Part shown: one piece after another, positions 9,685 to 41,354 of the stretch
Numbering within the stretch: the first letter of the stretch is position 1
Layout: every line of letters begins with the position of its first letter
Origin: a virus
Virus record (IMG/VR): IMGVR_UViG_3300034103_001442
Location: 87,741-151,740 of that record
DNA: 64,000 nucleotides
Strand: one strand, 5' to 3'
Notes under the pieces: generated by a model
Told to the model about the DNA's origin: nothing
Databases searched by the model: none
Seen by the model: only the letters and a program-made list of their open reading frames with translations
Program-made: the position numbers and the translations under genes

Positions 9685-12189
9685 CTATGAGAAAAAGTCC
9701 TCAAGTGTTGCTGTTTTTTCAACGTGCCAACCAATGGTGCTGATAATACTTTTGATCGGCTCAATATACGCTTTATCAAATTGAGTTTCGTAGTCAATGA
9801 AATTTTCCAACCCAAACTCTTTCGGCAAACCACTAGGACAAGACAGCACAGTTATGTTATATGGGTTTGGTTTCTTCATGTAACAGAATTTGATCTTTTC
9901 ACCACTTGCTATACCCTGATATTTATTCGTCAGATGTTTTTTCTCAATCAGGTGGTTGAAAAATATCGCACCCTTGACATGAATGGGTGTGCCCTTCTCA
10001 TATAACAAGTTCTGGTTTTGAGCCCATTTCTCAATATCAGTCACACCTCGCGGGAATGCGACATCCTCAAACTCCATCTTTCTAAACTCACCACGGAAGT
10101 TTTCGATAAACCTGTGAAGTGCTGACTCGTTCTCATTCATGATAATCTCAAGTGACTTCTTAATGTTATCACGACATGACGATGGGGTTGAGGAGCGGAC
10201 AGCCTCAATGCCCATCATCTTGAGTTTTGGCTTATCATACAGCACACCCTCTTGATCCCACACGTTGAGGATGTACATTTTCTTCGCCTTCCAAATACCC
10301 TTATTGGCGATAGCCTCACGCTTCATGATCATCTTTTGTTGAGCAGCGTGCATATAGTTCGCAAGTTCTTGATAGACACTGTCAATGTATGGCTCAAGTT
10401 TCTTTTGGCAAACCGTATCAATGAACTTGACAATCTTTTTGTCATCAGTTTCATTTGGCATAACTTCTTGAACCAAACGGTCAAGAGTGATGTACACTGA
10501 GTCAGTATCAGACGCAATGACATAATCTTTTTCTTTTGTCTTGAACAGTTTGTTGAGGTACTCATTGAGTTTACCCTCAATCCAACGGATGGACAACTGA
10601 CCAGACATAGTGATTGCCTCCGCATGGTTGATATCATACCAGCGGAAGTATTGATTACCCAACGCACCGTAAGCGGAGTTCAGCTGAATCTTTTTCGCCA
10701 TTTGCATGTTGTTGAGACGAGCAATTTCTTTCAGCAGTGCAGGGTTTTTGAACTTCTCATATTCTTTCTTGACCTCAATCATTTGCTTCTTGTACACTAC
10801 ACGGTCGTTGTACATCTTTTGCATTAGTGCGGGCAAGAACCCTTGACGCTCTTTTGAATACACGCAAAGGTTAGCGGCAATGGCGCAATTCATTTTGTCA
10901 AGGTATTCGTGGTAGTCAGTTATTTTGCCATCCAATATTTCCTCAATGGAATGCGACTGCTTGAGTTTAGTCACAAACGTCTCGGGGGAGATATTATACT
11001 GCATAATCAAGTGGGGGTAAAGTGAGTTGAGGTCGAATGATACAACCCATTTGCTCAACCCAACCTTTGGGTCTTTGACATAGCCACCAACTAGTGACTT
11101 ACAGTTTTTGTTTTTATCAAACTGCGGGATGACGATGTTTTTACCACGGAGGTAGTTATGTACAATAACATCCCACTGCTTAACTGAGGCAAGTGTATCT
11201 TCATAGTTGACCTTGGCGTCATATGACAGCGCATAGACCAACTCAATGAATTTCATTTTGTCTTCGAGTTTTTCAATCAGTTCAACGTCACGGATGTTAT
11301 ACTCAATATACTTTTGAAAGTTTGAGTTGTACATATCTTGCAAGCCAGTATACTCTGAATAGTCCAGTTTGCGCTCACCAAGTTCAACGTTGGCAATATG
11401 ATCTAGGCGATATGACTCCTGTTGAGTGTAGGTGAATTTTTTGTACAGGTTTTGATAGTCAAGCACGTTGACCCCAACTGGACTGTAGGCGATGTTTTCA
11501 CGCCCACGGATTTGAACTTTGTATTCTTCCAAAATGTTCCAAGGTGACAAACGTTTAGCATCATCATCGCCAAGTACATTTTTGATTCGGTTTACAAGGT
11601 ACGGAATATCAAAGAACTCAATGTTCCAACCAGTGACTACATCAGGGAGATATTCCTCACTATTCCAAATCTCAAGGAAAACACGGAGCAATGCAGCCTC
11701 ATCAGTGCACTTGTAGTACTTGATATTGTCTTGATGCTCGGTATAGTCACCGCAACCAAATACAACCTTTTTGCCATCACGTGACATAGTGATGGCTGTG
11801 ACTTCGTTCAGTGCGGTGTCCACTCGGGGAAAACCGTTATCAATGCTAACCTCAATGTCGATGCTAACTACTGAAATCAGCGAGGGATCATACTTAACCT
11901 CTCCATGAAAGGTGTCATAAATGTAGAGGTAGGTGAAGTCACTGAGTCCATACAGGCTCATACCCTGCACACCCTCATACTTTTGTAGGAACTCTCGACC
12001 TTCAGACATACTGCTGAAGTCTACACGACCGACATATTCACCCTTGAGATTTTTATACTCAGTAGCCTTGTTCGAGGGTATAAATAGATATGGCTTGTAC
12101 TGGACGGACTTTTTATATGGTTTACCATTTTGGTAACCTCTGACCAGTATCTGGTTACGGTGCCTTGTTACGTTCGTGTAAAAATGCAT
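9685..12189 (-). CDS. 43: family B DNA polymerase
   Basis: Exo DIEV, FDLNSLYP, KIQLNSAYG, SDTDS; start MHFYTNV after GGAG; C-terminal ATLEDFFS. Confidence 0.97.
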   Translation of the reverse strand: MHFYTNVTRHRNQILVRGYQNGKPYKKSVQYKPYLFIPSNKATEYKNLKGEYVGRVDFSSMSEGREFLQKYEGVQGMSLYGLSDFTYLYIYDTFHGEVKYDPSLISVVSIDIEVSIDNGFPRVDTALNEVTAITMSRDGKKVVFGCGDYTEHQDNIKYYKCTDEAALLRVFLEIWNSEEYLPDVVTGWNIEFFDIPYLVNRIKNVLGDDDAKRLSPWNILEEYKVQIRGRENIAYSPVGVNVLDYQNLYKKFTYTQQESYRLDHIANVELGERKLDYSEYTGLQDMYNSNFQKYIEYNIRDVELIEKLEDKMKFIELVYALSYDAKVNYEDTLASVKQWDVIVHNYLRGKNIVIPQFDKNKNCKSLVGGYVKDPKVGLSKWVVSFDLNSLYPHLIMQYNISPETFVTKLKQSHSIEEILDGKITDYHEYLDKMNCAIAANLCVYSKERQGFLPALMQKMYNDRVVYKKQMIEVKKEYEKFKNPALLKEIARLNNMQMAKKIQLNSAYGALGNQYFRWYDINHAEAITMSGQLSIRWIEGKLNEYLNKLFKTKEKDYVIASDTDSVYITLDRLVQEVMPNETDDKKIVKFIDTVCQKKLEPYIDSVYQELANYMHAAQQKMIMKREAIANKGIWKAKKMYILNVWDQEGVLYDKPKLKMMGIEAVRSSTPSSCRDNIKKSLEIIMNENESALHRFIENFRGEFRKMEFEDVAFPRGVTDIEKWAQNQNLLYEKGTPIHVKGAIFFNHLIEKKHLTNKYQGIASGEKIKFCYMKKPNPYNITVLSCPSGLPKEFGLENFIDYETQFDKAYIEPIKSIISTIGWHVEKTATLEDFFS

Positions 12190-12253
12190 AAATACTCCCA
12201 TTGAACTGACAAGTATACCTGAATGAGTTAATAAAGAAAAGCGCGAGGGAAAT

Positions 12254-13426
12254 ATGAGTTTAGCCAACCTACAAAAAAAGATGGGCATCGTCTCCGATGG
12301 TGCTTTTGGACCAGGAACATTAAAGGCAGCAATGGCGTACTACAAACTGACGCCAAATCGTGCTGCACACTTCTTTGCCCAAACGGCACATGAGTCTGGT
12401 AATTTCAAAGCATTTAGTGAAAACCTCAGTTACTCAGCAGATGGTTTGCTGAAAATTTTTGGTAAGTATTTCAATCCAGGCAACGTTACAAGTTATGCCC
12501 GCCAACCTGAAAAAATTGCCAACCGTGTATATGCCAACCGCATGGGTAATGGTAATGAGGCAAGTGGTGATGGTTGGAAGTATCGTGGGCGTGGCGCATT
12601 GCAATTAACTGGTAAAGACAACTATGCCGCATTTGCGAAATATTTAAACAAACCAGAAATTATGACAAACCCAGACTTGGTCGCGACCGAATATGCATTT
12701 GAATCCGCAATGTTTTTCTTTCAAAAGAATAACCTCTGGGCGATTTGTGATAGTGGCGTTAGCGATTCAACTATTTTAGCAATGACCAAAAAAATCAATG
12801 GTGGCACTCACGGTCTTGCTGACCGTAAAGAGAAAACAATTAAGTACCTCGGTTGGTCAATGTCAAACGCACAACCAACAAAGGCAGCACCCCCTCCAGC
12901 CCCAGCAAAGCCAGCAGCAGCGCCAGCCAAGCCAACTACAAAATTATCCCCTGATACTGTTTTGTCTGAAAATTTTAAACTTGGTGAGTTCATAAAATCA
13001 GAAACCGCAATACGTAAAGGTATTGACAACAGCCCAAGCGAGGAACATCTTGAAAATCTTAAACTTGTATGCCAAAAAATTCTTGAACCAGTTAGGAAAC
13101 ACTTCGGCAAACCAATTCGTATTAATAGTGGGTACCGTGGTCCTGCTCTTAATGCTGCTGTTGGCGGATCAAAAACTTCGCAGCATTGCAACGGAGAGGC
13201 AGTCGACTTTGAAATTGACGGACTTGCCAATCCTGAACTAGCAAAGTGGGTTGCTGCCAACTGTGACTTTGACCAAATCATTCTTGAGTTCTATGACCCA
13301 AAGGAAGGACCAAACAGTGGTTGGGTTCATGCAAGTTATACAAACAAAAAACCAAACCGCAAACAAACAATGACGGCATCAAGTGCTGGCGGTAAAACCG
13401 TTTACACTCCTGGATTTAAAATATGA
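12254..13426 (+). CDS. modular endolysin: short PG-binding domain + GH19 + Pro/Ala linker + peptidase M15
   Basis: DGAFGPGT; AQTAHESG, YRGRGALQLTGKDNY, INGG; LSENF, SGYR..LN.AVGG..SQH..GEAVD, WVH. Confidence 0.9.
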   Translation: MSLANLQKKMGIVSDGAFGPGTLKAAMAYYKLTPNRAAHFFAQTAHESGNFKAFSENLSYSADGLLKIFGKYFNPGNVTSYARQPEKIANRVYANRMGNGNEASGDGWKYRGRGALQLTGKDNYAAFAKYLNKPEIMTNPDLVATEYAFESAMFFFQKNNLWAICDSGVSDSTILAMTKKINGGTHGLADRKEKTIKYLGWSMSNAQPTKAAPPPAPAKPAAAPAKPTTKLSPDTVLSENFKLGEFIKSETAIRKGIDNSPSEEHLENLKLVCQKILEPVRKHFGKPIRINSGYRGPALNAAVGGSKTSQHCNGEAVDFEIDGLANPELAKWVAANCDFDQIILEFYDPKEGPNSGWVHASYTNKKPNRKQTMTASSAGGKTVYTPGFKI

Positions 13427-31564: not shown

Positions 31565-31588
31565 AAAAGAGGGGGAGTTGCCTCCCCC
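31565..31588 (-). terminator. terminator after gp45
   Basis: GGGGGAG-GCAA-CTCCCCC-TCTTTT. Confidence 0.75.
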
Positions 31589-31593
31589 ATCAA

Positions 31594-32253
31594 TTAACCC
31601 TGATAAGAGGATGAAGACTCAACAGCAATCCAGTACTCGACTTCCTTACCCTTAAAGTGTGACAAACCCTTCGATGAAATTGATACATCGTAGTCGCCAG
31701 CCATCACCTTGATATTTTCAGCGCGGAACACCATGCGGAAGTTCGCATTGGTTGTACCAACTTCAACGTTGAAAACGTCAGCAGTTGTACCCTTGACATC
31801 AACCGCCTGAAGATAGATTTTACCATTCTTGCCTGTGACGGCAATCTCAGGCAAACCTAGCACGCCAAGCGCACGTGTAGCCTTGGTCAACTTGGCTTCT
31901 GGCAAATGGAAATTAACTTCAGCATTTGAGAGATTAATTTCCTTTTCAGGTGCAGCAACGATCATAGAAGGATCAGTGAAAGTATACTCACACTGCTCTT
32001 CGCCATCACCCACAACAACGTGCTTCTCATTAAAGGTCAACTCTGGAGAGTCAAACTGAGAAACGACACCCAAGAAACGGGAAACGTCATAAATCGCAAA
32101 CTGCTGGGGGAAGTCTTGATTCAACATTGCCTTTGCCATCACAGTCTTTGACGGTGAAATGGTGCGGATAACGTTGCCAGGCTTTACAAGCACTGATTGA
32201 TTAATGGTTGCAAAATTCTTCAATACACTAACTGTCTTATCATCAAGTTTCAT
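31594..32253 (-). CDS. 45: sliding clamp
   Basis: LKNFATINQS, FAIYD..RFL, YWIAVE. Confidence 0.95.
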   Translation of the reverse strand: MKLDDKTVSVLKNFATINQSVLVKPGNVIRTISPSKTVMAKAMLNQDFPQQFAIYDVSRFLGVVSQFDSPELTFNEKHVVVGDGEEQCEYTFTDPSMIVAAPEKEINLSNAEVNFHLPEAKLTKATRALGVLGLPEIAVTGKNGKIYLQAVDVKGTTADVFNVEVGTTNANFRMVFRAENIKVMAGDYDVSISSKGLSHFKGKEVEYWIAVESSSSYQG

Positions 32254-32314: not shown

Positions 32315-33175
32315 TCACTTTTTCTTCTTTAACAAACTAGAATCAGCAGTTGCTGCTGCGCCAATTTGAGCAAGGTCAATGAGTGAACCGCCGAACACAT
32401 ACATACCAACGTGCTGGAGTTTCATCCATGGGCAAAGCCAAACATGCATTCCAGCCTTGCGTGACCACTGACAGAACATATAGTCCTCAGACAAGTAGCG
32501 ATTTGACTCCTCGCAAATTGGGGTGTCGAAAAATGCCATGATCTGACGAGTGCCATCAAAGTGCTCAGTGCGGATATGATCTGGGCGATACAATTGCTTT
32601 GGATATGCTTCCTGGAATTTTTCAAACGTCTTACGGCGAATCATCATGAAGCCAGTTCCCGCCTCAAGCACTTCAACTGGTTGCCCGAGTGGAATTTCGG
32701 TCTGACCGCCAACTGGGTTGAAAACGTAGTCACCAACGTACTTGTCAAGATCTGCTGGGTCTTTATCAGCAAATCCCTTATCAACTGCAACCTTAATCTT
32801 TTCCCAACTAATGCACTTCTTTGGGTATGGACCAGCGATGATGTCATACTTGTTATCAGGATCTTCATGATCAGACAACGCAAGAAGCGCAATGACATCG
32901 TTGGCATTAAATCCAATATCAGAGTCAATGAACATCAAGTGAGTATCACCACTGCGCATAAACTCATCAGCGCAATAGTTTCTCGCGCGAGTGATTAGTG
33001 ACTCATTGAACAAAAAGTAAAACCTTACCTGAATTCCATAGTGTGTACAAAGTGCTGAAAGGTCAGCAACTGACCTAGCAAACATACCACTACATTGACC
33101 GCCATACATTGGAACCGCAAGAAATAACTTACGCTTGCGGAGTTCTTCTACAGACACCTTAATATCAATTCCCAT
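32315..33175 (-). CDS. GT-A fold glycosyltransferase-like protein
   Basis: ESLITRARN, HLMFIDSDI (DxD), GTGFMMI, YLSEDY. Confidence 0.8.
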   Translation of the reverse strand: MGIDIKVSVEELRKRKLFLAVPMYGGQCSGMFARSVADLSALCTHYGIQVRFYFLFNESLITRARNYCADEFMRSGDTHLMFIDSDIGFNANDVIALLALSDHEDPDNKYDIIAGPYPKKCISWEKIKVAVDKGFADKDPADLDKYVGDYVFNPVGGQTEIPLGQPVEVLEAGTGFMMIRRKTFEKFQEAYPKQLYRPDHIRTEHFDGTRQIMAFFDTPICEESNRYLSEDYMFCQWSRKAGMHVWLCPWMKLQHVGMYVFGGSLIDLAQIGAAATADSSLLKKKK

Positions 33176-33449
33176 TTTTCATTGCCTCATCGTGAATATA
33201 AAGTTGAATAATTGAATAGTGAATAATCTTCAATAAGTCTTTTCGCCACTCTTCAGGTGTACCTTTTTTACCATAGCGTTGCGAATACTTTTGAATGTTG
33301 CCCATACAAAAACCAGTGCCGTGACCCGAGTCAATAATAAACTCAGTTGCCTGATATTTGTTTTGTGAGTAGTGTTGGGCGTAGGTGCTATTGACGTACT
33401 CTCGAATTTCATCGAGTGTTGCACCCTCATTGTATTTATAATCAGCCAT
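33165..33449 (-). CDS. DUF3310/SaV-like protein
   Basis: HY...GFCMGNIQKYSQRYGKK...DLLKIIHY. Confidence 0.8.
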   Translation of the reverse strand: MADYKYNEGATLDEIREYVNSTYAQHYSQNKYQATEFIIDSGHGTGFCMGNIQKYSQRYGKKGTPEEWRKDLLKIIHYSIIQLYIHDEAMKNGN

Positions 33450-33990
33450 TGACCACCTCTGTAATATACTTCATAATTTTATCTTGATCCTCAATGCTCT
33501 CATTATTGAAACGTTCAGTTACAAACTTCAACTCAAAGTTACCAAGTATGTTACTGATTTTACTTTCACGACCAGCAAGCCAAGTCTCATTTTGGTTTGA
33601 CCCACGCTCAGCATAACGAACCTTGCGAGTGTCAGACTTGGTTTGTAGGTAAACCATTTTGAGGTCAAACTTATTATTGCAATGCTCTAAAAAAGAAGCA
33701 GTACAAAGACGATCACCCTCAAAGAAAACAACGGAATCATTTGGCAGTGTGTCAAGAAACTTAATAGCCTCTGGCTGAACTGCCATGCTCATTCGGTCTG
33801 TTCCAGCAAACACTTCACCCTCTTCATACTTACCAAGGACGTATTTGTTCTCATGCTTATGATAGGGAACAAGTTTGAAATCTTCCTTGAGTGTGCCTTT
33901 AGCAAAACCGAGTTCACAAAGAACACGACGCATAAGAGTTGACTTGCCACTTCCTGGCTCGCCAAATATAGCAACAACTTTCATATTCAC
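33442..33990 (-). CDS. P-loop kinase, putative 5-hydroxymethyluracil-DNA kinase
   Basis: GEPGSGKST, GTDRMSMAVQP, FEGDRL; adjacent to aGPT-Pplase-like gene. Confidence 0.75.
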   Translation of the reverse strand: MNMKVVAIFGEPGSGKSTLMRRVLCELGFAKGTLKEDFKLVPYHKHENKYVLGKYEEGEVFAGTDRMSMAVQPEAIKFLDTLPNDSVVFFEGDRLCTASFLEHCNNKFDLKMVYLQTKSDTRKVRYAERGSNQNETWLAGRESKISNILGNFELKFVTERFNNESIEDQDKIMKYITEVVNG

Positions 33991-33991
33991 C

Positions 33992-35077
33992 TCAGTTCAA
34001 AAATCTAGTCAGTGAGTTTTCTGCTTCTTGATTGTAGAAGGGCATGTTTTTGATTGATGTCCAACGTTGTGGTTGCTTGTTGTACCAAGCCTCAACACGA
34101 GGAATTCGACCAAAATCTTTTAGACAGTTTACCCAGTCTTTACAGTAGGCGTGATCGGTTTCAGCCTTGTAGTTTTCATACAGCAGTTCTTGTGGAATGA
34201 CATGCTGTCTACCCTCTAGGTATTTATTCCAAAGCCAGTCATACTCTGGCCAATCACGCTTCATTTGCATCGTTTCAGCATACTGTTCATCTATATAGCA
34301 GCCGCCATAACGGGAACCTTTATGCTGACGTTTGTAATTACAGCAAGCAGTCTCAAGCGTGAAAAACCCAGCGCGGATAAATTTTTTATCAGCAATATAC
34401 TCAGCAGCAGTTCGCTCTAGGTATTCACAGTCTTCATTTGAAATAGTATCACCAGTCAAGTCGTCTCGACCGATACAAAACGCCCAACCTGACCTATGAC
34501 TTTTGCCATCAGCAAATTCCATAGTTGGGGGTAGGATAGGGGCATCAATAAACCTAGCAATCGCCTCTGAAAAACACCAGTGACCCATTCGCCCCCAGTG
34601 ATACCAATTGGTCATACATTTTTCTTTGAGGTCATTGTAGTTCTTGTATTTGTCATCGCTTTGTAGGCATGACTGGATAAAGTTCCCAAGTGTGCCATAG
34701 TGCTTCAATGACTCGCCAACTGAATAAAGAAACTTATCAAATACAAGTTTGCGGTACTTACAGTCAGGCGAAAACAGGAGTCGTTTTTTGTTCTCAAAGA
34801 AAAAGTCAACTAACCCCTGAACATTTGGTGTGATGGTTGAGAAACGATCAGCAAACATTGACTCGCATGGACCAGCATAAGTTGCACCATGAAACAAACC
34901 AAGGACACAACGTTTCTCAAAGTCAAACCCCATATCATCGGCAATCCATTTTTCAACTGCGATGTCGGGGGAGCAATCGTTTGTAAGGCAATGAAATTCG
35001 TAAAATTTATCAAAACCTACTTTGCGATATTCTATATCGCGGTAGTCAATATCAGATAGCATAGATACATTTTCCAT
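33992..35077 (-). CDS. aGPT-Pplase-like amino acid:DNA transferase
   Basis: WGRMGHWCFSE, FFTLETACCNYK...RY.GCYID pattern of the aGPT-Pplase/AADT family. Confidence 0.7.
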   Translation of the reverse strand: MENVSMLSDIDYRDIEYRKVGFDKFYEFHCLTNDCSPDIAVEKWIADDMGFDFEKRCVLGLFHGATYAGPCESMFADRFSTITPNVQGLVDFFFENKKRLLFSPDCKYRKLVFDKFLYSVGESLKHYGTLGNFIQSCLQSDDKYKNYNDLKEKCMTNWYHWGRMGHWCFSEAIARFIDAPILPPTMEFADGKSHRSGWAFCIGRDDLTGDTISNEDCEYLERTAAEYIADKKFIRAGFFTLETACCNYKRQHKGSRYGGCYIDEQYAETMQMKRDWPEYDWLWNKYLEGRQHVIPQELLYENYKAETDHAYCKDWVNCLKDFGRIPRVEAWYNKQPQRWTSIKNMPFYNQEAENSLTRFLN

Positions 35078-35714
35078 GACGCCAGATTTCTTCCCTTATT
35101 TCATAACCAAGGTACTGGCGCTGATTTCTTTTAGCAGCAGCCAGCGTTGTACCAATTCCAGCAAATGGGTCATATACAACATGACCCTCATCAGTATAAT
35201 TTAGTATACAGTATTCGGCGATTTCAATCGGTTGACCAACAACTTCGCCATCAATTTTCTTTTCTTTACCGAATGGTCCCCAAAAATCTTTACCGTAAGT
35301 TTGATACAACGAGTCTTTTCGCAGGTTGTACAAACCCTTGACGCCTTCTTTTTGAAAGGTCAATATATGTAGGATTTGCGAGGAGTAGGCATTGAAACTC
35401 TCGCTTTTCTTAGAATATTTTACATCTCTTAGATAATAACCGTTCTCAGAAAAAGAGTCAATGACAAATTTAAATTTCGGTAAAATGCGCCCACCATTGC
35501 GACGGTCGCCAGTAAATGAAACAGTGGCAGTGCCCAAACGCGGATTCATCATTGGGATAATGCCATCCATGAATTTGGTCTTGTAGGTCTCAGGCTTGTT
35601 TATATCAACTCCGAAAAACCCAAGGTCTTCATAACAAGGTGGGCTCATGAACAGGTAGTCATACTGCTCACTGGCAAACGTATCTAAACAACTACCAAGT
35701 TTGTATTCACTCAT
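35052..35714 (-). CDS. beta-class N4-C/N6-A-type methyltransferase (atypical motif IV)
   Basis: SPPCY near N-terminus; YDPFAGIGTT and LGYEI near C-terminus. Confidence 0.8.
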   Translation of the reverse strand: MSEYKLGSCLDTFASEQYDYLFMSPPCYEDLGFFGVDINKPETYKTKFMDGIIPMMNPRLGTATVSFTGDRRNGGRILPKFKFVIDSFSENGYYLRDVKYSKKSESFNAYSSQILHILTFQKEGVKGLYNLRKDSLYQTYGKDFWGPFGKEKKIDGEVVGQPIEIAEYCILNYTDEGHVVYDPFAGIGTTLAAAKRNQRQYLGYEIREEIWRHGKCIYAI

Positions 35715-37084
35715 TCAAAAAACGCCTCAAGGCTCGCATTTACACCAACAACGCCATCTTCATCTTTCATGTTGTGTTTCTTTAAGTAGTCCAACCACTC
35801 TTCACTTTCCCACATTCCTGGGCTGATACCATTCCAAAGTGGTCGCCAAAACTTATGATCCTTGTTTGCACGACGTTCATCAACAAACTTACGACGCAGT
35901 GTTTCATACTCCCAAGACTTCAACTCGAGCATTTTCTCGCGGAAGTAACAAACAAGTGAAATACGCTCGCTCTTTGGATCATCTGGATTATTCAAAACAA
36001 TCGGTGTGTTACCATGAATAATCTCATGATTGTTAACAAGGAGCAAGTCTCCAGGACGAACGTTGACCGCTACACGGTACTCGGGGAAAATAAGGTAGCC
36101 ACCAGTATAGTTACCAGTGCCTACAACCAGCAGATTACTCAAACCGTCATTCAAGTCACCAGCGTCACGGTGGGCAGCAGTACGGAAAGTCTTATTGACC
36201 GTGATTGTAGTGAATACAGTTTCAGGGACAAGAAAACGTTTATCAAGTTTATCAGCCGCTACTTTTTGGTTTGACCAACGCCATGGCATTAAGTCTTTGA
36301 AGCCACGGTTGAGTGATTGTAAGAATGGATAAGAAAGGGCAAACTTGTCAGGGTGTTTTTCGGTGTATGAAGTCGCACGACCATATGGAATGCGTGGGTA
36401 ACGATCATACCAACCAGCAACACCAGAATAAACTGACTTGGCATAGTTTGTAACTGAAATCCAGTCATTGACTACACGCTCCGCATCAGCACGTTGCTCA
36501 GCCGCTGGCTTGTCCAATATTGAATCAACCCACTTATCAAACCAACCGTGATACTCTGGGTAAACCTTGGTCACCTCAGAGCGTAGCCAAACTTGACCAC
36601 GTGTATCATCTGGGTTTGCGCGTGGTTTACCCGAGTGACGCTCGCGAATTTTTTCAACTGATTCATCTTGAATGAGTTTTGCCGAGTTGTCGAGGAAAAA
36701 ATCTAGAATTTCTAGTTCGTACTCGGTGACCCAATCGCGACCTTTGCGACCAGCAGTTGTAAGAAGTTCGCCTCTTGGACCAGCAGCAAGACCTCGGTTT
36801 TGACTCTCAGTTGCGGCTTCACGCAATCCATTGTAGGCTTGCTCTTGCTCCTCTTTGGTGAAAAAGTTTTTACGGAATTTAAAAGCAACAGTGCGTTCAT
36901 CAGTACCATCAGCACAGTTGTTACAATCTTGATTGCAGTTTTCCTTCGTTGTAATATCACAAACGGGAGGCATGAAACAATCAGTGTCTTCCTCGACTAG
37001 AATGTCGTAGTGACTTTCATCTAGATAATGACCGAGCAAATGCTCACAGTCAATTTTCTCTTTTGCTGTGATTACTTTAACCAT
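35711..37084 (-). CDS. TET/JBP-family 2OG-Fe(II) dioxygenase
   Basis: FTTITVN..FRTAAHRDAGD (HxD), IHGNT, RISLVCYFRE; SGVAGWYDRYPR. Confidence 0.88.
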   Translation of the reverse strand: MVKVITAKEKIDCEHLLGHYLDESHYDILVEEDTDCFMPPVCDITTKENCNQDCNNCADGTDERTVAFKFRKNFFTKEEQEQAYNGLREAATESQNRGLAAGPRGELLTTAGRKGRDWVTEYELEILDFFLDNSAKLIQDESVEKIRERHSGKPRANPDDTRGQVWLRSEVTKVYPEYHGWFDKWVDSILDKPAAEQRADAERVVNDWISVTNYAKSVYSGVAGWYDRYPRIPYGRATSYTEKHPDKFALSYPFLQSLNRGFKDLMPWRWSNQKVAADKLDKRFLVPETVFTTITVNKTFRTAAHRDAGDLNDGLSNLLVVGTGNYTGGYLIFPEYRVAVNVRPGDLLLVNNHEIIHGNTPIVLNNPDDPKSERISLVCYFREKMLELKSWEYETLRRKFVDERRANKDHKFWRPLWNGISPGMWESEEWLDYLKKHNMKDEDGVVGVNASLEAFFE

Positions 37085-37626
37085 GATAAAAACTCCCTTG
37101 ACTTATCTGACAGTTGGCTCATAGGTTTGATGGGGCTGTTCCTATTAAACTTTTTGGCAAACTTTTTCGCTTTTTCAAGATGATACTCGCTTGCTCTACT
37201 AGTATATAGTAAACCATTTAAATGGTCAAGTTCATGTTGAAAACATCTTGCGGTGATACCATCAAACACCTTTGTGACAGTCTCACCGTTGGGGAGCGTA
37301 TACCTTGTTTTAATTTTCTTTGGTCTTTTGATTTTAACAAACAGACCAGGATTGGACAAGCAACCCTCTTCCATTAAAATAGTTTCTGATGAATAGTCTA
37401 CAATCTTAGGATTAAAACAACCAATGACTTCTTCAGCACGCAATACAAACGCACGGTAAGGTAAACCCACTTGGTTAGCACTCAACCCAAGCCCATGATA
37501 CTCAATCATAGTCTCAGCAAGGTTGTTATACAACTCAACTGGGTTTGTAGGTGGGTTTGCAAAATCAAACAACTCCATCTCTTGGCGGAGGATCGGACTG
37601 TCACATTCCAACAACTTTAATATCAT
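37072..37626 (-). CDS. def: peptide deformylase
   Basis: GLGLSANQVG, EGCLS, QHELDHLNG. Confidence 0.95.
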   Translation of the reverse strand: MILKLLECDSPILRQEMELFDFANPPTNPVELYNNLAETMIEYHGLGLSANQVGLPYRAFVLRAEEVIGCFNPKIVDYSSETILMEEGCLSNPGLFVKIKRPKKIKTRYTLPNGETVTKVFDGITARCFQHELDHLNGLLYTSRASEYHLEKAKKFAKKFNRNSPIKPMSQLSDKSREFLSWLK

Positions 37627-39335
37627 ACCATCCTCGAAAAATTCTGATGCTTCACAAACTTAATAACCGAATGAAACTTGTCATACAACTGATCACCCTT
37701 ATGGCTGATGATGAACACGTTTGTATCGGCTGTCAGGCTCTCCAAAATTTTCAGAAACTCATCTGTTCCCGTAGCATCAAGTGAACTATCAAACACCTCA
37801 TCCATAATCAACAAGTTTGTTGATGCGGAGTTACGCATTTTAGCAATTGACCGCCAAGTGAATAACAGTGACAAGTCAATTCGCATTTTCTCACCTTCAC
37901 TGAATGAGTCATAAGAAAATTCATCACGGAAACGAGACTTGATCGTTTCTTTGAAGTTTTCATTCAACTCAAACTGAACAAAGAAGTCCATTGAGGCTAG
38001 GTACTTGTTGATCAGTTTGTTCATGATTGGAACATACTGACGAATAATTTTCGTTTTGATACCCGAATCTTTCAACAACACTGATGCTACGTCTTGAATT
38101 TTCTTTTCTTGATGCAACCCTTCAAGTGATGACACCTTGCTCTTCAATTCAGTTTGTAACTTTTCAATCTCAACATTGTTGGCGTCAATAACCTTCGTGT
38201 TGTTTCTGATCTTTTCAATTTCATCGTTTAACGTACTGATTGACTCATTCCAAGAGGATATCTTGTTATTGTTCTCAGTGATTTCACGATTCAATTTCTC
38301 AATTTCAGAATTGACAGATGAAATCTCAGCCAACCTTGATTCTAGAATTGTAAACTCTTTCGATAATTCTGTCAAGCCCCCATTGACTTGGGTTAGTTGT
38401 TCATTACGGGAGTTGAGTTTTTCGCACTTGAACTCTTCATGAATACCCTGCTTACAAGTAGGGCAGTTGTCGTTTTCTTCGAAAAATTTAACTTCCTTCC
38501 TAATCGCGCGAATTCTATCCTCAAGTTTCTTTTCTAATTCAAGAACTTTTTGTTTCTTGGTTTCGACTTTCGTTTTGTCTGCGATGGTTTGCTTCAAAGT
38601 ATTAATTTGAGCAGAAATGTTGGCAACAACTACGTTTGCCTCACTGATTTTCACTTTAGTGACATCAATGAGTTCTTGCTTTTGACCTATCAACTCCTCA
38701 TTGTTAAGTTTGAGTGACTTGATATTCTTTTCTTGCATCTCGATCTTGTTTTCGATCAAATCAATCTCATGTTCAGAGTTCAAGATTTCGTTTTTGTTTG
38801 CAACAACTTTTTCTTTCAGCAAACTATTCATGACTGAAAAGATTTGAATATCAAGAAGGTCTTCAATCACCTCACGTCTTGTATGAGCAGGCAACTGCAT
38901 AAACGGAATGAAGTTTGCCGAGCCGAGCACAACAATTTGTCCAAATGACTTATGATTCATTTTCAAAATAGTTGTCTCAAGTAGTTCTTGATACTCCTTG
39001 ATGTTTGGACTCTGGTTTATCAGCCCACCATTGCAATAAATCTCAAACACCTCTGGGCGTTGACCCCTTCGGATTTTATACTCCTTACTACCAATGCTAA
39101 ACTCACACTCAACCAAACAATTCTTTTGCGTGATAGAGTTTACAAGTTGCGGCTTGTTGATATTGCGGAATGGTTTACCGTAAAGAGCAAATGACAAAGC
39201 GTCAAGCATGGTAGATTTACCAGCCCCATTCTCACCAACCACAAGTGTTGATTTAGACCTGTTGAGTTTTATCTCGGTAAATTGGTTGCCCGTTGACAGA
39301 AAATTCTGCCAACGGATCGTTTTGAATAGTATCAT
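37623..39335 (-). CDS. 46: recombination endonuclease ATPase subunit (Rad50/SbcC-like)
   Basis: GENGAGKST, CPTC zinc hook, FSEGE, LIMDEVFD. Confidence 0.96.
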   Translation of the reverse strand: MILFKTIRWQNFLSTGNQFTEIKLNRSKSTLVVGENGAGKSTMLDALSFALYGKPFRNINKPQLVNSITQKNCLVECEFSIGSKEYKIRRGQRPEVFEIYCNGGLINQSPNIKEYQELLETTILKMNHKSFGQIVVLGSANFIPFMQLPAHTRREVIEDLLDIQIFSVMNSLLKEKVVANKNEILNSEHEIDLIENKIEMQEKNIKSLKLNNEELIGQKQELIDVTKVKISEANVVVANISAQINTLKQTIADKTKVETKKQKVLELEKKLEDRIRAIRKEVKFFEENDNCPTCKQGIHEEFKCEKLNSRNEQLTQVNGGLTELSKEFTILESRLAEISSVNSEIEKLNREITENNNKISSWNESISTLNDEIEKIRNNTKVIDANNVEIEKLQTELKSKVSSLEGLHQEKKIQDVASVLLKDSGIKTKIIRQYVPIMNKLINKYLASMDFFVQFELNENFKETIKSRFRDEFSYDSFSEGEKMRIDLSLLFTWRSIAKMRNSASTNLLIMDEVFDSSLDATGTDEFLKILESLTADTNVFIISHKGDQLYDKFHSVIKFVKHQNFSRMV

Positions 39336-39339
39336 AGTG

Positions 39340-40401
39340 TTACTCTATGGACAAGGCTTCAGTATAAAGGTTCTGAAGAAAAATGTCAAGTTTTTTCTTA
39401 TCAATACTGGTATCCATACCATCAACCACTTTGCGCAATATGGTCAGCGTGTCCTCAGCCTCATTGATGATGTCACCGTCATCTTCAAGATTCAGATTCA
39501 AGTGGTCATCAAGCACCTGTAAGTCTGACACCCCTGTTTTCTCAAGTTTGTCAATAAACATATCAAACCAAAGAGGATTTTCTTTAGAGTGAATGATGAC
39601 TTTGACATATTGATTTTTGTAGGGCGCTGGGTCAAACAGAAGCACTTCATCCATCGTTTTGCCAGCGTCATCATAGTGAATTTTGCTGAACATTTTGTAT
39701 GGATTTTCGATAAACAACAACTCACGTGTATCAGTATCGAAAATATGAAAGCCACGCGGGTCATTATAGTCTGACCAAGTCATTTCATAAGGAGCGCCAA
39801 GGTAGTGAATATTACCCCTGCTTGACTTATGATGGAAGTGACCAGACAAAACCATATCGAATTTATCAAACTGTTTGGCATCAAATCCATGGTCATTGAA
39901 TGAGCCACGGTACATTTCAAATCCTTGAATCTCTAGGTGACCAAAAAGGATTTGGGCATCGGTTTCATTGACAAACTTCATTGACTCGTCATAGTTACCC
40001 GAGCAAACCCAAGGCAACAATGCGATTTTCAAGCCATCAAACTCTTTAGTGGTTGGGCTTGAATAATAAGAAACATCATATGAACTATGCTCAAACAACT
40101 CATTCATTGAGTTGACTTCATTTGTATTCTTAAATGAAGTGTCATGGTTGCCGATCAAAACGTCAAGTTTTATCCCTGACGTGTCACAATGACCAACAAA
40201 CTTCCGCAAGTTTTTTGCGGTCAAATAGTTGATATACTTGCGGCGGTCTACAATATCGCCCAAGTGAATGATTTGTGTGATGTTGTTTTCTTTTAAATAC
40301 GGAAAGAAAAAATCGTAGTAGAACTTGTTAAAGAAATCTGCAAATGCTTGACTATCGCCTCGTGCGCCCCAGTGTGTATCAGTTATCAAGGCTATCCGCA
40401 T
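39340..40401 (-). CDS. 47: recombination endonuclease subunit (Mre11/SbcD-like)
   Basis: TDTHWG, HLGD, GNHD, SGHFH; start MRIALIT. Confidence 0.96.
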   Translation of the reverse strand: MRIALITDTHWGARGDSQAFADFFNKFYYDFFFPYLKENNITQIIHLGDIVDRRKYINYLTAKNLRKFVGHCDTSGIKLDVLIGNHDTSFKNTNEVNSMNELFEHSSYDVSYYSSPTTKEFDGLKIALLPWVCSGNYDESMKFVNETDAQILFGHLEIQGFEMYRGSFNDHGFDAKQFDKFDMVLSGHFHHKSSRGNIHYLGAPYEMTWSDYNDPRGFHIFDTDTRELLFIENPYKMFSKIHYDDAGKTMDEVLLFDPAPYKNQYVKVIIHSKENPLWFDMFIDKLEKTGVSDLQVLDDHLNLNLEDDGDIINEAEDTLTILRKVVDGMDTSIDKKKLDIFLQNLYTEALSIE

Positions 40402-40939
40402 TAGAATCCTCCTCATCAATAAACTTTTCAATACCCTTGCGCTTCTTTTTCTTTTCGATCTTTGACTCAAACTTTTCTATCATATCATTGATATTGTCGC
40501 TTGTATTGAGTAACAAAGCATCAAAGTGAGCCAGTTCTTCACTCGACATGTCAACAAGGTTGTTATTCACAAGTGCGTGTTCAAGACTCTTATGCTTGAT
40601 GTAAGACTGTTTCTTTTCTTTAGAAATACGACGCAAGAATGCATAGTATATAATTTGTGTGAAATAAGCAAAAGGGTTGCTTGACTTATCTGGGTCGAAA
40701 TTGTGGAGGTAGGTTAAGCAGTTCTCAACACCATCACTGATCATTTCGTCTTTGTAAGTGTACCCAGCAAAGTTTGGCTTGGTTGCCAAACGTGTGGCAA
40801 TTTGAAAGATGCAGTACCCGATATACTCGGGGATGCGTGGCTTTGGTTCACCTTTTTCTTTCGCTTCGTTGACCCTTGCAATATGCTTTAGCATTTCTGC
40901 ATAAAGTTTCTTGTTGTCAACATAATGATTCGACTTCAT
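40379..40939 (-). CDS. 55: late-transcription sigma factor
   Basis: HYVDNK, NFAGYTYKDEMISDG, NPFAYFTQI. Confidence 0.95.
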   Translation of the reverse strand: MKSNHYVDNKKLYAEMLKHIARVNEAKEKGEPKPRIPEYIGYCIFQIATRLATKPNFAGYTYKDEMISDGVENCLTYLHNFDPDKSSNPFAYFTQIIYYAFLRRISKEKKQSYIKHKSLEHALVNNNLVDMSSEELAHFDALLLNTSDNINDMIEKFESKIEKKKKRKGIEKFIDEEDSNADSLDN

Positions 40940-40949
40940 AATAAATCCT

Positions 40950-41354
40950 TCAGTGTATGTTTGTATTCGCAACGCCCTGTGTTAAAAACAATTTGTTGAG
41001 TTTTTCGATAAACTCTTCCTTTTCACGCTCAGTGTCAATCAAGTCGTGAAGAGCATCGCCTATCTTTTGTTCGGCAAGTTTCTTATCTTCTTTGCCAAAT
41101 GGACGAACTTCATTGTAGTATTCAACTAGTATATCTTGAGGCTGATAATAAGTCAATATGTGTTTTTTTTCAAAAACAAGATAATCCGTAATTGATAAAC
41201 TGGTGGCACTGTGAAGTTTCAACTGGGTTTCGTAGTCATTGTCTCGGTAAACTTCGATAACCATTGGGTCATGAACAACTGCTGGATCAACGCTATCCGC
41301 TTCCAGTTCTCCAATAATGGTTTCACCGCTAACTAACTTTAATATTTTGATCAT
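40950..41354 (-). CDS. conserved T4-like hypothetical protein (Sm-like)
   Basis: ILKLVSGETIIG N-terminus; between uvsW and gp55. Confidence 0.75.
   Translation of the reverse strand: MIKILKLVSGETIIGELEADSVDPAVVHDPMVIEVYRDNDYETQLKLHSATSLSITDYLVFEKKHILTYYQPQDILVEYYNEVRPFGKEDKKLAEQKIGDALHDLIDTEREKEEFIEKLNKLFLTQGVANTNIH

Follow-up and report, generated by a model that had tools for sequence, protein, structure and literature searches.

The window analysed here, a stretch of 64,000 nucleotides corresponding to bases 87741-151740 of the 151,740-bp IMG/VR record IMGVR_UViG_3300034103_001442, derives from an uncultured T4-like phage and carries on its minus strand, at 33442-37084, four tightly packed open reading frames (ORFs) encoding a TET/JBP dioxygenase, an N6_N4 methyltransferase (MT), an amino-acid:DNA transferase (AADT) and a P-loop kinase. 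These genes probably form a post-replicative thymidine hypermodification cassette, the dioxygenase of which would dock on the gp45 sliding clamp of the phage. The pathway type is already known; the coupling of the MT, the clamp-type tails and the swap site in T4-like phages go beyond earlier papers, and the variant as a whole, combining a long TET lacking ParB, a coupled non-canonical MT and clamp-type tails, is undescribed in the literature searched. The cassette consists of the following genes:

35711-37084, minus strand: long-form TET/JBP (5mYOX) dioxygenase, 457 aa; Tet_JBP PF12851, E = 1.6e-24, 86 bits (cut-off 34.9)
35052-35714, minus strand: beta-class amino-methyltransferase (MT), 220 aa; N6_N4_Mtase PF01555, E = 5.9e-16, 59.5 bits
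33992-35077, minus strand: AADT (formerly aGPT-Pplase2), 361 aa; ADDT PF18724, E = 2.9e-15, 57 bits (cut-off 26.2)
33442-33990, minus strand: P-loop kinase of the Ploopntkinase3 clade, 182 aa; PF18751, E = 6.9e-14, 52 bits

All four ORFs lie where the original prediction had placed them, and the profile families it had named beforehand (Tet_JBP, N6_N4_Mtase, aGPT-Pplase, here PF18724, and Ploopntkinase) were all matched, with scores exceeding the Pfam curated cut-offs. The junctions are compact: the TET overlaps the preceding peptide deformylase gene (def) by 13 nt and the MT by 4 nt, MT and AADT overlap by 26 nt, and AADT and kinase are separated by a 1-nt gap. In the TET, the Fe(II)/2-oxoglutarate (2OG) facial triad (H305-x-D307, H357) and the 2OG-binding R374 are invariant in an alignment of 22 homologues, so that the HxD...H...R signature reported earlier for this protein is indeed intact. 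Its AlphaFold2 (AF2) model (predicted local distance difference test score, pLDDT, 82.8) has the TET-type jelly-roll, with CcTet, TET2, NgTET1 and CMD1 as the closest folds (E 1e-9 to 1e-7). The assignment of 33992-35077 as an AADT-like protein was likewise upheld by the PF18724 match and by the catalytic Glu242 and Cys246, invariant in 26 sequences including Salmonella phage ViI gp247; both residues of AADT were shown to be essential (PMC8989533). The protein is 26% identical, over 91% of its length, to ViI gp247, a proven serine:DNA transferase and the sole characterised AADT used as reference, as Pseudomonas phage M6 gp51 was not found within bases 25000-59000 of the unannotated M6 record. 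The kinase has the Walker A sequence GEPGSGKST and probably starts at an ATG two codons in; its constant adjacency to the AADT is the basis for predicting that it acts on 5-hydroxymethyluracil (5hmU) in DNA.

The best reading of the gene content is that the TET oxidises thymine to 5hmU in DNA, a prediction made from sequence. Neither a C5-methyltransferase (PF00145), nor a ThyA-family enzyme (PF00303, the family of dUMP hydroxymethylases), nor Dam was found in the whole 151,740-bp record, the cassette MT being its only N6_N4 methyltransferase. PF00145 and PF00303 are both missing from 5/5 relatives with a TET orthologue, three of which are 100%, 98% and 100% complete, and one of these complete relatives carries the same MT-AADT-kinase cassette. 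The absence of a C5-methyltransferase and a dUMP hydroxymethylase, previously noted for the window, therefore extends to the record and its near-complete relatives, and a search of the rest of the genome for dUMP hydroxymethylase, thyA/thyX and C5-methyltransferase genes returned only ThyX (one gene, outside the window). With no C5-methyltransferase and no ThyA-type hydroxymethylase, thymine is the only available 5-methylpyrimidine and hence the only plausible substrate of the TET. Ordinary dTMP is predicted to be supplied by ThyX, and replication to proceed with T.

The second element of the proposal concerns the C-termini of the cassette enzymes, for which the following features are relevant:

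9685-12288, minus strand: DNA polymerase gp43 (PF00136), the C-terminus of which (...TATLEDFFS) defines the clamp-binding tail motif of the phage
35714-35737, minus strand: C-terminal tail of the TET (...ASLEAFFE), same motif as the polymerase tail and candidate gp45-docking peptide
33995-34018, minus strand: C-terminal tail of the AADT (...ENSLTRFLN), a degenerate polymerase-like tail
31594-32253, minus strand: gp45 sliding clamp (gp45-slide_C PF09116 and phrog_223, E = 9e-72)

Under a strict definition of the tail motif (C-terminal [STGN][LIVM][DE]x[FLM][FLM] plus 0-2 residues), only gp43 and the TET carry it among the 176 ORFs of the genome. In the TET model the corresponding residues 448-457 follow a linker of variable length and have pLDDT values below 50. 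Across 90 T4-like loci, the strict motif was present in 73 of the 133 distinct tails of TET, AADT, TET-associated glycosyltransferase (TAGT), GT1, GNAT and GATase proteins and in 7 of 785 others (Fisher p 3e-62), the latter seven being the ends of DNA polymerase fragments, of additional enzymes of the cassettes and, in one case, of a 95-aa ORF without annotation. It was not found in the kinase, MT or inositol-phosphate synthase, nor in any of the replication neighbours. The polymerases of four relatives end in the same motif, and in one phage polymerase and TAGT both terminate in TLEDFFG. In contrast, on ten non-T4 backbones none of the four cassette families (TET, MT, AADT and kinase), including AADTs of the same subclade, showed such a tail. 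In T4, gp43, gp55 and gp33 possess interchangeable hydrophobic-acidic C-terminal clamp-binding motifs on divergent linkers (PMC2988020). This distribution suggests that the tailed enzymes dock on the gp45 clamp; no published case of polymerase-like tails on phage DNA-modifying enzymes was found in the literature searched.

Other tail-like sequences were encountered in the same survey. The TET homologue of Stenotrophomonas phage DLP6 ends in ...ATLGDFFV and a neighbouring 288-aa protein (L082 4057-4920) in ...LSDLSSFFN. The late sigma factor homologue gp55 (40379-40972, minus strand) contains GIEKFIDEE about 10 residues from its C-terminus, similar to the GLERFT and GIESFME tails of AADTs from related phages. 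The only other loose match in the genome is a 238-aa ORF of the baseplate region, located outside the window (C1:42125-42841, plus strand) and ending in ...STLNDFFTLG, which may be due to chance.

The possession of such a tail has to be considered together with the question of ParB, which, itself a DNA clamp, was proposed to hold its dioxygenase on DNA (PMC13229309). No PF02195 match at E <= 1 was obtained in the whole record. The long TET is alignable throughout to the short ParB-linked TETs, its catalytic core being 42% identical to a ParB-linked short TET of 318 aa that occurs in the same TET-MT-AADT-kinase order, and its extra length consists of insertions inside the TET fold, namely a variable Cys-rich insert and a stretch of ~100 aa after the NRGxAAG motif, together with a C-terminal extension ending in the tail. 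Dependence of the long TET on gp45 would explain both the missing ParB and the inactivity of some ParB-less clade C1 enzymes in Escherichia coli. It is somewhat probable that in this lineage the gp45 clamp stands in for the ParB-like activator required by the short phage T-dioxygenases. The possibility that the N-terminal 250 aa of the TET represent a fused ParB was considered and rejected, as this region gave no Pfam match and has no similarity to the ParB of locus L087. The Cys-rich insert (residues 36-57; 36914-36979, minus strand) has the pattern C-x5-C ... C-x3-C-x2-C and is present in most long TETs, although missing in some close relatives; it may be a zinc-binding module. The short ParB-linked TETs (L087:7042-7998, L101, L106-L110) have a conserved C-terminal motif of their own, GLN-x-ME(V/D/E).

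The MT displays the motif order of the beta class, with a motif IV-like stretch in the N-terminal part and the S-adenosylmethionine (SAM) motif I (DPFAGIGTT) in the C-terminal part. Its AF2 model (pLDDT 90.6) matched the rotifer N4-cytosine methyltransferase of A. vaga (N4CMT, 8s9m) with a Foldseek E value of 1e-15, and the nearest folds are the N4-cytosine (N4C)/N6-adenine (N6A) DNA methyltransferases 8s9m, 2zie, 5hfj and 6pbd (TM 0.63-0.72). Canonical beta-class enzymes have (D/N/S)PP(Y/F/W) as motif IV. In the window this motif reads SPPC-Y-E-D, and across the aligned family [S/G]-[P/T/I/S]-P-[C/D]-[Y/F]-E-D, departing from the consensus at both functional positions, while motif I is retained, as is the ribose-binding Glu. 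The homologues are closely related and fall into 49 clusters at 49-98% identity. In 29/29 informative viral loci and 3/3 contig look-ups the gene order is TET-MT-AADT-(small ORF)-kinase, with MT homologues 46-91% identical, and in all 29 loci the MT stands beside one AADT subclade; conversely, most loci of this subclade proved to contain the MT when the AADT was used as the query. At least three backbones are involved, including T4-like phages and ~40-kb marine phages with ParB and the 318-aa TET, located near terminase and HK97-type capsid genes. The AADT of the window is 61% identical to that of an unrelated marine phage and only 22-25% to those of nearer T4-like relatives, whereas for the kinase the relation is reversed (35% to the marine kinase, 57-64% to kinases of other T4-like cassettes), indicating that MT and AADT were acquired together.

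In the T4-like phage L130 the order is TET-AADT-kinase without MT, and in six short-TET loci the position between AADT and kinase is occupied by a 2OG oxygenase resembling Asp/Asn beta-hydroxylases, so that the MT appears dispensable for the transfer and its slot open to another amino-acid-modifying enzyme. Proceeding from this arrangement, we tentatively consider the MT a tailoring N-methylase of the AADT adduct, a proposition approaching but not reaching even odds. A role for the MT as supplier of the TET substrate, as in pairs of C5-methyltransferase and TET, was rejected on three grounds: cassettes without an MT are served by TET orthologues that are 58-82% identical, the family has either Cys or Asp at the motif-IV position, and the MT follows the AADT and not the TET type. 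In loci L136 (2867-4000) and L138 (4181-5434), where the same AADT subclade is followed by the Asp/Asn beta-hydroxylase-like oxygenase in short-TET phages, the pairing hints at a transferred group that is Asp- or Asn-like.

TET relatives are encoded by 236 viral contigs, of which 80 loci were fetched for comparison of gene order. In these loci the TET orthologues (58-82% identical) occupy the same site between gp46/def and gp45, and the genes following the TET vary:

MT-AADT-kinase (this window and its closest relatives)
GATase, 290-aa unknown protein, GNAT, 450-490-aa unknown protein, AADT, kinase
AADT, inositol-1-phosphate synthase, 126-aa protein, kinase
261-aa unknown protein, AADT, kinase
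TAGT alone
GT1 glycosyltransferase alone
kinase alone

One conserved TET site followed by variable genes implies that a single resident dioxygenase primes many decorations, without any need for an MT. Among cultured phages, the TET homologues of DLP6 (L082 7001-8347) and of Caulobacter phage Cr30 (L083 7001-8329) are labelled 'SNF2 DNA repair protein'. Besides its TET, Cr30 has an AADT and an inositol-1-phosphate synthase, and the combination of TET and AADT with a myo-inositol-1-phosphate synthase (Cr30, L083 12293-13474; also L010:6628-7755) hints at an inositol-derived DNA decoration in cassettes of this kind.

Taken together, the proposed route would begin after replication with T from ThyX-made dTMP. 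The long-form TET/JBP would hydroxylate thymine in DNA to 5hmU, an activity demonstrated in the literature for relatives, and the Ploopntkinase3-type kinase would, judging from its context, phosphorylate the new hydroxyl. By the mechanism described for ViI gp247 and M6 gp51, Cys246 of the AADT would attack C6, the phosphate would be expelled and an amino acid captured on the exocyclic methylene. In the weakest step, which we rate slightly below an even chance, the non-canonical MT would N-methylate the group thus attached, and the resulting base would be an undescribed one. The TET, and probably also the AADT, would reach new DNA by docking on gp45 through a tail copied from the DNA polymerase. 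Thus the original prediction of a route from T via 5hmU and phosphorylation to amino-acid transfer stands as the best reading, but such a hybrid of in-DNA oxidation and amino-acid transfer is not undescribed (PMC8989533, PMC8256090, PMC13229309). The broadest form of the proposal, in which a T4-like toolkit of TET, AADT, glycosyltransferases and acetyltransferases rides gp45 by polymerase-mimicking tails, decoration following the fork and the clamp replacing ParB, and in which in addition the MT N-methylates the adduct to an undescribed base, is rather doubtful as a whole.

Several alternatives were weighed against this interpretation. The TET could act on 5-methylcytosine (5mC), with kinase and AADT subsequently hypermodifying cytosine, a possibility that Burke 2021 put forward for certain contigs with a C5-methyltransferase; among phage TETs, the characterised members of clades A/B oxidise 5mC, and a 5-hydroxymethylcytosine kinase role was raised for P-loop kinases in such contigs (PMC8256090). 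This appears very unlikely here, in view of the lack of PF00145 in the record and in the 100%, 98% and 100% complete relatives, the amino-methyltransferase fold of the sole MT, whose motif-IV Cys is Asp in several members and hence no C5 nucleophile, and the pairing of TET orthologues with MT-free cassettes. The earlier view of 5mC as the sole substrate of characterised phage TETs is moreover out of date: phage T-dioxygenases, with ParB-dependent and ParB-independent subclasses, have been demonstrated in vivo and in vitro (O'Toole 2026, PMC13229309), T oxidation was shown for AADT/kinase-linked enzymes, the ParB-dependent ones occur in constant association with GATases, P-loop kinases and AADTs, and a C5-methyltransferase occurs in only 6% of 5mYOX pathways (PMC13229309). 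A cassette in decay, or carried silently without effect on virion DNA, is barely credible; the inactivity of some ParB-less clade C1 enzymes in the heterologous E. coli assay (PMC13229309) would fit it, whereas the four ORFs are intact and tightly packed, their catalytic residues are invariant over dozens of homologues at 46-91% identity, and the gene order is conserved across backbones. The shared tail might also serve a purpose other than clamp docking, such as contact with another protein of the replisome, or be a signal governing stability or localisation. The kinase, which also needs DNA, has no tail, and the binding of T4 alpha-glucosyltransferase to gp45, claimed in 2004, could not be repeated in a 2025 preprint that used C-terminally tagged enzymes (bioRxiv 10.64898/2025.12.06.692756). 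We nevertheless regard a function unrelated to the clamp as unlikely, since the motif matches the tail of the phage's own gp43, a kind of tail that in T4/RB69 has been found to bind gp45 and can be exchanged between clamp ligands (PMC2988020), stands at the extreme C-terminus behind a variable, low-confidence linker as in gp55, and is confined to T4-like, gp45-encoding backbones.

For the MT, the competing explanation is an ordinary orphan N4-cytosine or N6-adenine methyltransferase placing a second, independent protective mark and leaving the thymine adduct untouched. Orphan methyltransferases are common in phages, and this one has an intact SAM motif, and its top matches, by sequence as well as by fold, are without exception methyltransferases of DNA bases (8s9m N4CMT, TTHA0409, M1.HpyAVI, CcrM, M.PvuII). 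The explanation is a serious one, if short of probable: on the other side stand the MT never having been seen apart from this AADT subclade on at least three backbones, its co-transfer with the AADT, the non-canonical motif IV, and its location in a slot held by tailoring enzymes of sister cassettes. For the proposed route as a whole, a number of the observations given above count as adverse: the failure to reproduce the binding of T4 alpha-glucosyltransferase to gp45, the inactive ParB-less clade C1 enzymes, the MT-free cassette of L130, and the resemblance of the MT, itself without a clamp tail, to ordinary DNA N4C/N6A methyltransferases. To these are added the estimated completeness of the record of only 87%, the tail of the window AADT (SLTRFL), which lacks an acidic residue, and the affiliation of the kinase to Ploopntkinase3 and not to the HMUD2 (PF18747) clade of the proven ViI gp243, with which it has only the P-loop in common.

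The surroundings of the cassette comprise the following features:

37623-39335: gp46, upstream flank
37072-37626: peptide deformylase (def), upstream flank
33165-33449: DUF3310, downstream flank
32315-33175, minus strand: phrog_1574 protein, 286 aa, downstream flank, between DUF3310 and gp45
31571-31588: strong terminator just downstream of gp45

The location between gp46/def upstream and gp45 downstream thus agrees with the earlier description, except that gp45 is not an immediate neighbour, the DUF3310 and phrog_1574 genes intervening; gp44 lies beyond gp45 on the same side. At the DNA level, a search of the phage collection yielded a single 112-bp match only. A T4 late-promoter-like sequence, TATAAATA, at 33433-33440 (minus strand), is found right past the kinase stop codon, within the annotated start of the DUF3310 ORF, and late transcription of DUF3310, phrog_1574 and gp45 may proceed from there. 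The phrog_1574 protein is kept beside gp45 in all relatives and has an invariant D-S-D after a beta-strand-like stretch. It gave no Pfam match and no PDB match and has no C-terminal tail, with one weak atlas lead to nucleotide-diphospho-sugar transferases (a family on 32% of cluster members). As a candidate pathway member it was rejected, since it is tail-less and has homologues in Sinorhizobium and Rhizobium records giving no TET match, and it probably stands outside the cassette. Homologues also occur in Pelagibacter and Synechococcus/cyanophage records, where TET matches came only from another phage of the same host.

Hypermodification of thymine after replication has recently come to be recognised as a counter-defence that is widespread among phages, and the products of only very few TET-linked cassettes are known. 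In this minimal four-gene cassette, with an altered-motif MT as sole tailoring enzyme, a new base may be formed, and the MT may be a new DNA-adduct methylase useful as a tool. ParB-less phage TETs inactive in E. coli may need the phage clamp together with the clamp loader; DLP6 and Cr30 are cultured relatives with TET homologues and tail-like ends. DNMT1 is coupled to PCNA in eukaryotes, and clamp-coupled DNA modification in phages, if true, would parallel this arrangement. The tails would also reopen the old and disputed claim for T4 alpha-glucosyltransferase and gp45 with much clearer sequence evidence.

Compared with known systems, the cassette is nearest to the metavirome TET_JBP/5mYOX clade C1 clusters. 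Contigs without dUMP hydroxymethylase but with TET_JBP beside T-hypermodification genes have been reported, and in-DNA conversion of T to 5hmU deduced from them (Lee 2021, PMC8989533); TET contigs with P-loop kinase and aGPT-Pplase were also listed, and one TET oxidising T was found (Burke 2021, PMC8256090). As in these clusters, TET_JBP replaces dUMP hydroxymethylase, C5-methyltransferase is missing, and kinase and AADT are adjacent. In contrast, the present genome has no ParB, and its TET, which bears a tail, has 457 aa against about 280-320; an MT partner is treated in the papers on clade C1 clusters only in a domain tally (PMC8989533, PMC8256090, PMC13229309). Salmonella phage ViI (5-NeOmdU) and Pseudomonas phage M6 (5-NedU) likewise activate 5hmU in DNA by a kinase before the action of a Cys/Glu AADT; however, their 5hmU is made before replication by dUMP hydroxymethylase and tailored by pyridoxal phosphate-dependent decarboxylase or radical SAM enzymes, while in the window 5hmU would arise in DNA via the TET, the sole tailoring candidate is the MT, and the kinase belongs to PF18751 instead of HMUD2 (gp243). 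Trypanosome JBP1/2 and base J share a TET/JBP-family thymine hydroxylase acting on finished DNA and subsequent decoration of 5hmU, a likeness accentuated in sister cassettes by TAGT or GT1 glycosyltransferases; the window differs in a predicted amino-acid transfer via a phosphorylated intermediate instead of glucosylation, and in the lack of a J-binding domain. The MT resembles beta-class N4C/N6A methyltransferases (A. vaga N4CMT 8s9m, TTHA0409, M1.HpyAVI, CcrM) in fold, motif order and SAM motif, but has SPPC ([S/G]-x-P-[C/D] in the family) in place of (D/N/S)PP(Y/F/W) and an unusually strict genomic coupling to AADT. Finally, the tails resemble those of the T4-type clamp ligands gp43, gp55 and gp33 in being short hydrophobic-acidic motifs placed behind a variable linker at the very end of the protein, the ASLEAFFE of the TET corresponding to the ATLEDFFS of the phage's own gp43, with the difference that the carriers are DNA-modifying enzymes and not polymerase or transcription factors (PMC2988020).

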